A program made the position numbers and the translations under genes. The notes beneath the pieces were generated by a model that was not told where the DNA came from, searched no databases, and was given only the letters and a program-made list of their open reading frames with translations. From the UHGV virus genome UHGV-0274194: a stretch of 6,845 nucleotides of DNA. One strand, written 5' to 3'. Shown one piece after another: positions 3,574 through 6,845 of the stretch (positions are counted from its first letter, which is position 1; the number at the start of each line of letters is the position of its first letter). This DNA is from a virus.

Positions 3574-4212
3574 GTGTTGAATCCTGATGATTTGGATGAG
3601 GGTGTTTATCCAGATTGCTACTGGAGTTATATAGGGCAAAAGGATTATTTGAAGCCTAACACATACTTACAAGATGCAATTGATGATTTGAATTCAGGAA
3701 GTGAACGCCGAAATATGAATAATGCAGTGCGAAATGCAAAATCGGCATTACATATGAGAGTGGATATTCTTTGTCGAGCTTTTTGTGGCCGCGAATATTT
3801 CCAAAGGAATCTAAGGAACTTTCCAAAAAAGATGGATTTCCTAGAGGGAATTGGAATAGTTAGACCTAGAATAATTGATAAAATAAATAAAATAAGAAAT
3901 GAAATTGAGCACGAGTATCGAGATGCAACTCTTGAGGAAGCAGAGGATTTCATAGATATAGTTTTATTGTTTATGGAAGCAACTAGATATTTAAATTCAA
4001 GGTTTCCATGTGAAGTTGACTTCCATGGATTGGCAGTTTCTGATGAGGTTTATTTAAGGAGAGTAGTATGCAATTGGGAAGGTGGAGAATTACTTTTTTA
4101 CTATTCAAAGCAAGAGTCACGCCGGCTTGATAACGTGCAAACCTACTCAATAAAAGTGGGTGATTATAGATACGCTCGGTGGGTAAAATTCATTCTAGAT
4201 CATTGCGATTGA
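3574..4212 (+). CDS. Cargo protein, 212 aa, putative HEPN-domain RNase (HepT-like RNxxxHxY motif); function unverified
   Basis: GTG start with a strong SD (AGGAGGG, 6-nt spacing). Motif I-R108-N-E-I-E-H113-E-Y115 equals Rx4HxY in a predicted helical context. About 30% GC, far below the flanking core. A perfect TATAAT at 3442-3447 upstream has no good -35. Confidence 0.6.
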   Translation: MLNPDDLDEGVYPDCYWSYIGQKDYLKPNTYLQDAIDDLNSGSERRNMNNAVRNAKSALHMRVDILCRAFCGREYFQRNLRNFPKKMDFLEGIGIVRPRIIDKINKIRNEIEHEYRDATLEEAEDFIDIVLLFMEATRYLNSRFPCEVDFHGLAVSDEVYLRRVVCNWEGGELLFYYSKQESRRLDNVQTYSIKVGDYRYARWVKFILDHCD

Positions 4213-4249
4213 TATACTATTTGTCCTAACTCACTAAAATAAGTATTTT

Positions 4250-4276
4250 AGACCGAGCTAGGCGTAGCCTCGGTCT
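4250..4276. terminator. Hairpin between the convergent cargo genes (candidate bidirectional terminator)
   Basis: 8-bp perfect stem AGACCGAG / CTCGGTCT with an 11-nt loop, sited between the stop of the plus-strand gene (4212) and the stop of the minus-strand gene (4285). The flanking U-tracts are weak. Confidence 0.45.
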
Positions 4277-4284
4277 AAGTGTTA

Positions 4285-5310
4285 TCAATTTGCCAATGCA
4301 GCAACTAATCTTGCTAATTCATTGAAATTACTACTGAATTCTTTTCTGTTTTCTTTCATCGTATCCAGTATTACTCCATTTTGCTCTATTTGTGCATCTG
4401 AGAGGGCGAATACCGGCGTGCTATGTTTTTGAGATTGAGCAATTAGTGAGTTAAAGTCAGAAATATTCGCCAAATTAAAGGGCTCTTTTGAGGGACAGGC
4501 ATTTTCAAAATCAGTAACCGAAATTGACATATTGATAGGATTTAAAGCTGGTATTAATGTATTAGTGACCTCATCTTTGATAATATCAATCCATCTTTGA
4601 AATGATTTTACTGGTAAATTATTTCTTGGACGATACTTCTGAGATATAAATCCGATGAATTTCGGCGGATCAATAGGGAATGGATATAATATTCCACTAT
4701 CTCTAAAGTTATTTATCTCGCTGTTCCATCTAGGAAGAACTTTTGCGAGTGACTTTATTGCCTGAGCACAGAAAAAATCTGGTGATGTAGGAACTATAAA
4801 ATAGTCACTGCACATTAAGAGACATTCATTTAATGCACCAACGCTGGGGCTCATGTCAATAAGGACATAATCAAATTCATGTTTGCGCGCAGTCTCACGC
4901 AAAAAAGCTCCGATGCTGCCGGGGATATTTCTAATTGCGGGAATAGCAGCGCTGGTTGTCAGCGCAACTCCAATCTGTGTTTCAATTTCTGATAAATAGA
5001 TGCTACCACACAATAAACTTAAATTTGGATTTGTTGTGACTAATGGGTCGGATGGTATAACTTTTCCTAAAGAACCATCTACAACAGGTTTGATGCAACT
5101 ATAAATATCACAGTTTGGATTGTTTTTATAGATTTCATCAAAGTCATCAGTGGTCGAATAGCCCAAAGCTAAGGCTGTCAAATTACATTGTGGATCAGCA
5201 TCAACTATTAAAACTTTATAGCCAAGATTAGCTAGCATCCACCCCATGTTAAAAGTCGTGGTTGTCTTACTAACACCACCTTTATGATTAAATAAAGATA
5301 TTATTTTCAT
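4285..5310 (-). CDS. ParA/MinD-like P-loop ATPase (deviant Walker A), 341 aa, with a long C-terminal extension
   Basis: N-terminus FNHKGGVSKTT is a deviant Walker A (KGGxxK[ST]); A' motif VLIVDADPQ; Walker B FDYVLIDMSP. AAGGA SD 7 nt upstream of the ATG. About 36% GC. Confidence 0.8.
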   Translation of the reverse strand: MKIISLFNHKGGVSKTTTTFNMGWMLANLGYKVLIVDADPQCNLTALALGYSTTDDFDEIYKNNPNCDIYSCIKPVVDGSLGKVIPSDPLVTTNPNLSLLCGSIYLSEIETQIGVALTTSAAIPAIRNIPGSIGAFLRETARKHEFDYVLIDMSPSVGALNECLLMCSDYFIVPTSPDFFCAQAIKSLAKVLPRWNSEINNFRDSGILYPFPIDPPKFIGFISQKYRPRNNLPVKSFQRWIDIIKDEVTNTLIPALNPINMSISVTDFENACPSKEPFNLANISDFNSLIAQSQKHSTPVFALSDAQIEQNGVILDTMKENRKEFSSNFNELARLVAALAN

Positions 5311-5332
5311 TCGAAATCCTTAATAGAAATTA

Positions 5333-6499
5333 TTACTTTAAAAGATAGTTGCTATACCACTGAAGCATTTCCCTTCTTCTTTCAAGGTATTGAGCATGAT
5401 TATATGTTCCTCGAATACTATTCTTATCAACATGAGCAAGTTGCAACTCAATCCATGCACTATCAAACCCTTGTTCATGCAATATTGTCGACATTGTATG
5501 TCTGAAACCGTGACCTGTAGCACGACCTTTATAACCCAGTAGTTCAATTACTTGCGACACACTCTCCTTAGATATTGGTTTGTTACGGTTGTTTCGCCCA
5601 ATAAAAATGTAAGGATAGTGTCTTGTAATAGGTTTTAGTTGGTTAAAAAGATCAACGACTTGTGTTGATAGAGGGATAATATGGGGTCTGCGCATTTTCA
5701 TTCGTTCTGCGGGGATTTCCCATAAACCTCTCTCAAGGTCAACCTCATCCCATGCTGCAAAGCGCATCTCTTGAGTTCTCACACCGGTGAGCATAACTAT
5801 CTTTGTTGCATTTTTCGTTATGATGCTACCGGTATACGCTTCGAGATCCTGAATAAAATGAGGCAATTCTTCGGCAGATAGAAATGGATGATGTTTTTGT
5901 TTAGGAACGGCCAGAGCGATGGCTAAATCAGGCGCAGGATTGTATTCAGCGCGGCCAGTTATGATTGCGTAGCGATAAACCTCACCGCACCTCTGACGCA
6001 CCTTACGTGTTTTCTCTAGTGCCCCACGCTTCTCTATTCGTCGCAATACTTCAAGCAGTTCTAACGGTTTGATTTCACTGATAGGGCGTTTACCAATGAA
6101 CGGGAACACATCTTGCTCAAATGTCTTAATGATTTCTTCGCGATAGGCCACTGTCCAGCGGTCAGCTTTGTTAGTGTACCATTCTCGACATATGGTTTCG
6201 AATGAGTTCTCTGTTGAGAGTTGCTGTGCCAGTTTTTGGGCTTTACGTTCTCCCACTGGGTCTATGCCGTTTGCTACCTGCTTACGAGCGGTATCGCGTT
6301 TCTCACGTGCTTCTGCGAGGCTCACAAGGTTGTAGCTGCCAAATGACATTAGCCGTGCTTTACCGGCAAAACGAAAGCGGAAGCGCCAGCCCTTTGAGCC
6401 GTCTGGATTGATGAGTAATGACAGGCCTTGTCCATCGTTCAGTGTGTAGGGTTTGTTTTGGGGCTTTGCTCGTTTAATTTGTATATCTGTTAGTGGCAT
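5333..6499 (-). CDS. int: P4-type tyrosine site-specific integrase (selC-targeting family)
   Basis: 388 aa. The N-terminal arm-binding region ([24 protein letters not shown]) is typical of P4-like integrases, and catalytic-core motifs are present (R in GVRTQEMR, HxxR in GHGFRHT, LAHV, Y in RGTYNHAQY). It is adjacent to and co-oriented with the tRNA 3' end. Confidence 0.9.
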   Translation of the reverse strand: MPLTDIQIKRAKPQNKPYTLNDGQGLSLLINPDGSKGWRFRFRFAGKARLMSFGSYNLVSLAEAREKRDTARKQVANGIDPVGERKAQKLAQQLSTENSFETICREWYTNKADRWTVAYREEIIKTFEQDVFPFIGKRPISEIKPLELLEVLRRIEKRGALEKTRKVRQRCGEVYRYAIITGRAEYNPAPDLAIALAVPKQKHHPFLSAEELPHFIQDLEAYTGSIITKNATKIVMLTGVRTQEMRFAAWDEVDLERGLWEIPAERMKMRRPHIIPLSTQVVDLFNQLKPITRHYPYIFIGRNNRNKPISKESVSQVIELLGYKGRATGHGFRHTMSTILHEQGFDSAWIELQLAHVDKNSIRGTYNHAQYLERRREMLQWYSNYLLK

Positions 6500-6550
6500 G
6501 TGTATAAGTCAAAAGTGTGTATAAAAAATCTATACACATCACTATACATA
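6500..6550. promoter_or_regulatory. int upstream region with palindrome TGTGTATA-N7-TATACACA (6516-6538) and extra GTGTATA / TATACA copies; candidate operator or integrase arm sites
   Basis: Perfect 8-bp inverted repeat with a 7-bp spacer. Another GTGTATA sits at 6500-6506 abutting the int start codon, and ACTATACATA at 6541-6550. Confidence 0.4.
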
Positions 6551-6660
6551 TTTTTCATGGATTCAGGGAGAGCTTGTCGGACGGTTACGGATGAGCGATT
6601 TACTATATGCTTTGAAAATAAAGGATTTTTAGACTTTCTCGGATGGTGACGGAGGAATTT

Positions 6661-6728
6661 TGGCGGAAGATCACAGGAGTCGAACCTGCCCGGGACCGCT
6701 GGCGGCCCCAACTGGATTTGAAGTCCAG
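6661..6728 (-). tRNA. selC: Truncated tRNA-Sec (selC): the 3' 68 nt only (anticodon arm with UCA, long variable arm, T arm, 3' acceptor strand with GCCA); the 5' acceptor strand and D arm are missing
   Basis: The reverse complement CTGGACTTCAAATCCAGTTGGGGCCGCCAGCGGTCCCGGGCAGGTTCGACTCCTGTGATCTTCCGCCA matches the 3' portion of E. coli selC as recalled. The TCA anticodon and long extra arm are visible. The match stops abruptly at 6728. Confidence 0.8.
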
Positions 6729-6845
6729 AACGATGGACAAGGCCTGTCATTACTCATCAATCCAGACGGCTCAAAGGGCTGGCGCTTCCGCTTTCGTTTT
6801 GCCGGTAAAGCACGGCTAATGTCATTTGGCAGCTACAACCTTGTG
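6729..6845 (+). repeat. Perfect inverted duplicate of int codons 21-59 (partner arm 6323..6439), fused to the truncated selC and running off the window; possibly the 5'-truncated start of a second, oppositely oriented integrase
   Basis: Manual base-by-base reverse-complement comparison of 6323-6439 with 6729-6845 gives 117/117 identity. It translates on the plus strand as [39 protein letters not shown], with no in-frame start codon upstream. Confidence 0.9.

Follow-up and report, generated by a model that had tools for sequence, protein, structure and literature searches.

Predicted arm-type sites of a P4-family integrase in front of int in a satellite prophage at selC

Short repeats crowd the DNA immediately in front of the integrase gene (int) in the 6,845-nucleotide stretch analysed here (hereafter the window; UHGV virus genome UHGV-0274194), and the question that this locus raises is which factor, if any, they serve. 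The initial annotation had singled out a palindrome among them as the likely binding site of a dimeric protein and had offered integrase autoregulation, an AlpA/Vis-type excision regulator or arm-type sites of the integrase as possible explanations. We propose, on the basis of sequence comparisons, that the copies of TGTGTATA are very probably arm-type sites of the element's own P4-family integrase (Int), located in the int-proximal (P′) arm of attL/attP.

Its gene content marks the window as a selC-located satellite prophage resembling P4 and phiR73. It contains psu, delta, a sid-like gene, vis, the C4/CI RNA and the iterons of a P4 origin, with int situated beside selC, and Pfam matches were obtained for Psu, Delta, an Ash-family protein, a ParA-like ATPase and the integrase. 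Within Int, Pfam identifies an Arm-DNA-bind_3 domain (PF13356; residues 3–88, E=1.9e-26) together with the Phage_int_M domain and the catalytic Phage_integrase domain. The ATG at 6499 is the correct start of int because the conserved N terminus, MPLTD..., begins there. No Shine–Dalgarno (SD)-like purine run precedes this ATG (...CTTTTGACTTATACAC-ATG), so that the earlier remark on the lack of an SD is correct for the selC clade. The SD is also absent at the int start of P4, and the clades with GGGGG-type repeats (see below) carry GGAG upstream. The product of the vis/alpA homologue is likely, from its similarity to P4 Orf88/Vis, to be the excision directionality factor for the same att arm.

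Other parts of the element are also of P4 type. Clusters of GGTGAACAG / GTGAACAGT at 1334–1366 and 1421–1440 are identical to the 'ori type 1 repeats' of P4 and, from their position with the vis operon on one side and the sid-delta-psu operon on the other, are read as the replication origin of the satellite. Searches against Rfam identified the C4 antisense RNA (the P4 CI immunity RNA, 81 bits) and isrK (71 bits) at 500–587 and 650–727, both on the minus strand. The variable hotspot between psu and int (3574–5310) carries as cargo a 212-residue protein with a weak HEPN (RiboL-PSP) match and a convergent 341-residue ParA/AAA_31 ATPase, for which the PADLOC match (PDC-M28B) is also weak. These two proteins may represent an undescribed anti-phage pair. 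Between attR and the primase gene, the full element of E. coli M10 additionally encodes a reverse transcriptase of the retron St85 family with its effector (locus L001, 2888–4775), which we take to be the layout known for the selC retronphage phiR73.

Four complete E. coli genomes are 100% identical to the window across positions 5300–6728 (megablast). In strain M10 an annotated element lies between setC and selC, with int 161 nt downstream of selC and in the same orientation, and hence the ∼160 bp that hold the repeats constitute the int-proximal arm of attL. The minus strand of the window carries both selC and int with a 161-nt spacer between them, and the corresponding spacers in relatives measure ∼161–163 nt. 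Within the 29.4-kb M10 locus a single further copy of the selC 3′ end marks the other terminus of the prophage (attR), so that the core forms a direct repeat (L001, 2699–2722 and 15358–15381). The same block is found at the attR of T43, a different selC satellite.

The last 118 nt of the window (6728–6845) are a perfect inverted copy of 6323–6440, which is the 5′ part of int. The copy is joined inside the anticodon stem of selC, at the point (6728) where the genome matches stop and where the complete genomes run on into the 5′ half of selC. From this arrangement, 6728–6845 is probably a fold-back or chimeric assembly end. It is because of this copy that selC is truncated in the window; the repeats are not touched by it. 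A full-length tRNA-SeC reported by ARAGORN at 6665–6757 was rejected since its 5′ half is the fold-back artefact, and Rfam gave no tRNA at the gathering score. The features of the window are collected in Table 1 together with those annotated in P4.

Table 1 Positions of the att region, int, vis and predicted arm-type sites in the window, and of the annotated arm repeats of phage P4
Feature	Position	Strand	Sequence, basis or remark
Window
int, P4-family tyrosine integrase with N-terminal arm-DNA-binding domain	5333–6499	−	Pfam; 37% identity to P4 Int
vis/alpA homologue, 88 residues	799–1065	−	70% identity to P4 Orf88/Vis
attL core, 24 bp (last 20 nt of selC plus 4 nt)	6657–6680		Identical block at both prophage ends
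tRNA-Sec (selC) gene, 3′ 68 nt, 5′ part absent	6661–6728	−	Fold-back window end
P′1, predicted arm-type site, first unit of the tandem pair with 12-bp period	6540–6551	−	ATATGTATAGTG in int sense
P′2, predicted arm-type site, second tandem unit and right arm of the palindrome	6528–6539	−	ATGTGTATAGAT in int sense
P′3, predicted extra clade-specific inverted copy, left arm of the palindrome	6515–6526	+	GTGTGTATAAAA
P′4, predicted inverted arm-type site over the first two bases of the int start codon	6498–6509	+	ATGTGTATAAGT
Block of the int-proximal arm common to P4 and the window	6610–6648		ACCATCCGAGAAAGTCTAAAAATCCTTTATTTTCAAAGC; alignment A2
Phage P4
Arm repeat at the annotated int start, abutting a conserved second ATG	3915–3926	+	NC_001609
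Abutting arm-repeat pair, int side	3942–3953, 3954–3965	−	NC_001609
Core, 20 bp	4078–4097		NC_001609
Second abutting pair, beyond the core	4151–4162, 4163–4174	−	NC_001609

The palindrome itself was confirmed. A repeat-finding tool returned the perfect 8-bp inverted repeat TGTGTATA-N7-TATACACA described in the initial annotation, with TGTGTATA at 6516–6523 and TATACACA at 6531–6538 on either side of the spacer AAAAATC. The additional copies claimed there, including one at the int ATG, are also real and occupy 6498–6509 and 6540–6551. The first of these reads TGTGTATAA on the plus strand (6499–6507), or ATGTGTATAAGT in its 12-mer form, and shares the A and the T of the int ATG (the complement of 6497–6499). 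The second contains TATACATAT (6543–6551), which is ATATGTATA when read on the minus strand and is spaced 12 bp from TATACACAT (6531–6539). A second inverted repeat, perfect over 9 bp, is formed by 6498–6506 and 6531–6539, and a weaker copy, TTTGTATA, lies within int at 6478–6485. Along the minus strand, in the direction of int, the four main units follow one another as ATATGTATAGTG, ATGTGTATAGAT, TTTTATACACAC and ACTTATACACAT-G, that is, two abutting 12-mers in the same orientation followed by two inverted copies.

The simplest account of such repeats would be chance in AT-rich intergenic DNA, and the palindrome taken alone does lack window-wide significance. About 0.95 perfect 8-bp inverted repeats with spacers of 3–10 nt are expected per window by chance, and a value of P∼0.023 is obtained when only the 161-nt intergenic region is counted. 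The palindrome by itself is therefore weak evidence. The number of copies, however, is a different matter: the window contains three exact copies of TGTGTATA where 0.18 are expected, with none of 200 shuffled sequences reaching three, and three copies of a single 8-mer inside 162 nt correspond to P∼0.013.

The repeats are found in the att arms on both sides of the core that attL and attR have in common. In the M10 locus exact TGTGTATA is present four times, compared with 0.63 expected; three of these are the int-side copies and the fourth adjoins the attR core. This fourth copy belongs to a pair with a 12-bp period in the P arm of M10, AAGTGTATAAGT and ATGTGTATACAA (L001, 2778–2801), that begins 55 nt from the core. 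T43 has a corresponding P-arm pair, ATGTGTATAAAT and ATATGTATAAGG (locus L089, 8832–8855), 56 nt from its attR core. The Int-region DNA of T43 and M10 is ∼91% identical, their cargo is different, and the DNA between core and pair is unrelated. In the P arms of both M10 (AATCAATGCATTG; L001, 2736–2748) and T43 (AATCAAATGGTTA; L089, 8789–8801), a perfect match to the consensus for integration host factor (IHF) is situated at 13 nt from the core, which places it between the core and the tandem sites. P4 has a site with one mismatch at the equivalent place (locus L008, 4109–4121). In the int-proximal arm of the window no match to the IHF consensus WATCAANNNNTTR was found at ≤1 mismatch and hence no IHF site is called there.

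The initial annotation had suggested a comparison with the arm-site repeats of P4, and this gave the same order, the same orientations and the same 12-bp period with similar distances, although the motif differs. The P4 sites were taken from the RefSeq feature table (NC_001609) and from secondary citations. The record annotates seven 'attP arm sequence repeats', which trace to Pierson & Kahn 1987 as cited in PMC7286903. P′1 aligns column for column with P4 3954–3965 and P′2 with P4 3942–3953, while P′4 is the counterpart of the P4 repeat at 3915–3926. In both P4 and the selC satellites a tandem pair is accompanied by an inverted unit at the int start and by a second pair on the other arm. The distance from the core to the int-side pair is 112 nt in P4 versus 105–109 nt in the window, and that on the other arm is 53 nt in P4 versus 55–56 nt in M10 and T43. 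The seventh P4 repeat is located inside int, and no equivalent of it was found within int of the window. The two elements are alike in integrase family and satellite gene set. P4 differs in that its repeats are of the TTGGGGGCAYAW, TGGGGGCAT type rather than TGTGTATA, its core lies in a tRNA-Leu gene rather than at the 3′ end of selC, its Int is only 37% identical to that of the window, and it has no counterpart of the extra inverted unit at 6515–6526.

The int-proximal arms of P4 and the window are colinear, with the tandem pairs in the same columns and blocks such as ACCATCCGAGAAAGTC in common. From its conservation, the block at 6610–6648 is a candidate for binding not Int but an accessory factor that is itself conserved, either Vis or a host protein. 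Throughout 6555–6650 blocks are kept with P4 despite the different Int motif (ACCATCCGAGAAAGTC...ATCCTTTA), and the submotifs RTCCG and AATCC recur near 6644, 6593, 6583 and 6564, where they are candidate Vis or host-factor sites.

A single scan of GTDB representative genomes yielded 80 loci with Int relatives at 53–93% identity, 77 of which were tested. The upstream regions were viewed from −90 to +12 around each int start, and the test called for two 9-mers at 11–13 bp spacing with ≤2 mismatches plus an inverted copy ending a few bases from the ATG. A tandem pair (at ∼−52) with an inverted copy at the ATG was present in 76 of the 77 loci, whereas shuffled upstream regions gave a mean of 1.3 and a maximum of 5. 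Because the loci are phylogenetically related, the independent evidence lies in the motif classes, and the independent support in the survey corresponds to approximately four motif classes and five tRNA targets. The four classes are GTGTATAG (the TGTGTATA class, in clades at 59–93% identity), GGGGGTA, TGGGGGCAT (the P4 type) and GTGTCCCT, and they match signatures in the N-terminal domain of Int (for example, LTDIQIKR...WRFRFR versus LNARQVET...WRMKYR). The TGTGTATA class was found at tRNA-Sec, Thr(CGT), Gly(CCC) and Arg(CCT), and the GGGGG classes at Thr(CGT), Gly(CCC) and, in P4, Leu. Motif class is thus decoupled from the tRNA target, with one class occurring at several tRNAs and different classes at one tRNA. 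That the motif tracks the N-terminal domain of Int independently of the target is the modularity predicted for a heterobivalent integrase. A chance origin of the copies is excluded by their number in the window, their conservation across genera, their match to the annotated sites of P4 and the recurrence of the architecture far above its frequency in shuffled sequences. In three loci of a tRNA-Gly clade (L060, L062 and L083) the spacer between tRNA and int is ∼35 nt longer, the tandem pair lies at ∼−85, and additional copies of the motif are present between the pair and the ATG.

If the copies are not accidental, a protein other than Int might still be their ligand, and the most obvious one is the Vis/AlpA-type excision factor encoded in the window, which in binding them would bend the arm and repress int. 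The P4 record annotates Vis as 'excisionase and transcriptional regulator', and P4 Vis is stated, as cited in PMC7286903, to repress the int promoter PintP4. However, the Vis of the window and that of P4 have 70% identity overall and hardly differ across the helix-turn-helix (HTH) region. The two elements nevertheless carry completely different repeat motifs, P4 repeating TGGGGGCAT and not TGTGTATA. Since Int is only 37% identical between the two, the motif follows Int, not Vis. Moreover, it tracks the class of the Int N-terminal domain, it has zero copies in the Vis-controlled late-promoter region (1065–1540), and the blocks in common with P4 at 6555–6650 are more plausible as Vis sites. The AlpA/Vis option is not supported by these results, and we regard Vis as an improbable ligand of the repeats.

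The same comparisons bear on the palindrome, which could in principle be the operator (6516–6538) of a separate dimeric regulator encoded by the host or the element. Its perfect 8-bp arms and 7-nt spacer are what such a protein might recognise, and the exact palindrome is present in M10 and in 15 loci of the selC clade from several genera. In the seven E. coli selC sequences of alignment A1, the tandem pair and the copy overlapping the ATG are invariant, while the unit at 6515–6526 appears as TTATACACAC, TTATACATAT, TTATACGTAG or TTATAAGTAG. The O157 sequence in that alignment retains the three universal units, and in O157-type E. coli sequences P′3 is degenerate (TTATACGTAG). P′3 is also missing from two selC-clade loci (L033 and L035), from all other clades and from P4. 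When 33 unique selC-clade sequences are compared, P′1, P′2 and P′4 have mean column conservation values of 0.94, 0.87 and 0.93, respectively, which makes these the best-conserved intergenic blocks, whereas P′3 (0.79) is at the background level of the remaining intergenic region (0.6–0.8). The operator of a dimeric regulator would be expected to conserve both half-sites and their spacing, and many of the homologues here have a degenerate left half-site or lack it altogether.

A special case is provided by Yersinia (L029–L032, L034 and L087), where, in the region ∼45 to 20 nt upstream of the ATG, AGGGTATAG forms the second tandem unit and CTATACCT the extra inverted one. The palindrome persists there as a 7-bp/N7 form despite changes in both arms, and the first and last units stay GTGTATAG. 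Survival of the palindrome in this way would be in keeping with an operator, and the double change could reflect selection. It could equally reflect templated quasipalindrome correction, a process that can change both arms of a palindrome together without selection. The half-site, in addition, is identical to the arm motif specific to the Int class, and about one such palindrome per window is expected by chance. The proposal of a palindromic site for a dimeric protein is accordingly not supported, the copy that completes the palindrome being restricted to the selC clade and less conserved than its neighbours, and a separate dimeric regulator is very unlikely. The palindrome exists because the selC clade has an extra inverted unit at 6515–6526 head-to-head with P′2, and the comparative data are best read as showing an added arm unit peculiar to this clade, the palindrome as such not being what functions. 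The unit at 6515–6526 most likely serves as a further Int site under weak constraint.

The inverted copies might also act mainly as RNA, the int leader forming a hairpin in which the SD-less start is masked or at which transcription ends prematurely. The leader can be folded so that P′1/P′2 pair with P′3/P′4 (−13.8 kcal/mol, z=−2.0), and int of P4 is said to show premature termination and post-transcriptional control. However, the z-score is modest, with 5 of 200 shuffled sequences folding as well, and the predicted leader presumes a transcription start for which the promoter scan gave no candidate. The tandem pair on the other att arm, which is outside any int transcript, is left unexplained. 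RNA structure as the main role of the copies is hence hard to credit, and a leader hairpin would be a secondary layer at most. A related but distinct idea is that the palindrome of P′2 and P′3, 15 nt upstream of the SD-less start, is a control device of the selC clade that P4 lacks, either as a cooperative Int clamp that locks the leader or as an mRNA or single-stranded DNA hairpin (P′1–P′2 with P′3–P′4) that hides the start codon. This is speculative and rather unlikely; in the hairpin variant, if true, the same bases would serve both as arm sites in DNA and as a translational switch.

Binding by Int is the reading that we prefer. Of the options in the initial annotation, arm-type sites of the integrase are favoured by positional homology with P4, by the copies on the other arm and by co-variation with the class of the Int N-terminal domain. 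We propose that the N-terminal domain of Int would bind the arm units while its C-terminal domains hold the core, and that Int, bending proteins and Vis would together build the intasome for integration at selC and excision from it. Integrase autoregulation, another of those options, gains support as a consequence of the arm-type sites. Because the arm overlies the start codon and, presumably, the int promoter or leader, Int bound there would also repress int, and by this reasoning the sites probably act as an autorepression operator as well. The overlap with the promoter is assumed, since the interval from selC to int contains no sigma-70 promoter matching the consensus at 9 or more of 12 positions, and a scan of 6300–6845 for promoters and terminators was empty. 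A TATAGT hexamer within P′1 (6542–6547) is only suggestive, having no good −35 partner.

Autorepression has been reported for related integrases. IntL represses PintL fourfold at the selC-intL locus of O157 EDL933 (PMC2951348), and IntI of the selC island PAI I536 in strain 536 strongly represses its own promoter with the assistance of IHF (PMC7286903). The latter source also cites repression of PintP4 by P4 Int and Vis. An arm site on the int start codon across the family would offer a simple structural reason for autorepression in P4, O157 IntL and 536 IntI. Primary P4 papers aside, a literature search returned no description of arm sites for P4-like integrases, and the present analysis supplies a predicted arm-site motif and map for the selC-targeting integrases of P4/phiR73 type. 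Such integrases mobilise satellites with defence cargo and neighbour selC islands, for example in O157 strains, and an arm-site map helps to delimit att sites when islands are annotated. Read as arm-type sites, the repeats are an ordinary part of the known integration and excision machinery, and no new mechanism is involved.

Beyond P4, three known systems resemble this arrangement. In the KplE1 (CPS-53) prophage, arm-type P′ sites for IntS together with TorI sites lie over the intS promoter in attL/PintS (Panis et al. 2010, PMC2951348). As in the window, a tRNA gene is followed by int in the same orientation, the 'STI' shape of Panis et al., with enough intergenic DNA to accommodate attL. In KplE1 attL covers the int promoter, as is predicted for the window, and the arm-type sites serve as the autorepression operator. 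KplE1 differs in that its integrase belongs to another lineage (IntS-type integrases of HK620 and Sf6, 'prointegrase IntS', are ∼47% identical to the window Int), its P′ sites contain TAAA and its recombination directionality factor (RDF) is TorI. Furthermore, the KplE1 layout was mapped experimentally, whereas that of the window is derived from sequence. PAI I536 of uropathogenic E. coli 536 (Chitto et al. 2020, PMC7286903) likewise has a P4-like integrase beside selC, IntI, with strong repression of its own promoter and binding of IHF to the promoter region. However, it is a pathogenicity island and not a satellite, and the repression was reported without mapped Int sites. Phage lambda offers the general model of arm-type sites (P1, P2 and P′1–P′3), in which the N-terminal domain of Int binds sites in both arms that are unrelated to the core and IHF bends the DNA between core and arms in a heterobivalent intasome. 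Unlike the window Int, with its Arm-DNA-bind_3 domain (PF13356), lambda Int uses an arm-binding domain of another family on a different arrangement of sites, and transcription of lambda int does not run through the phage's own attL arm.
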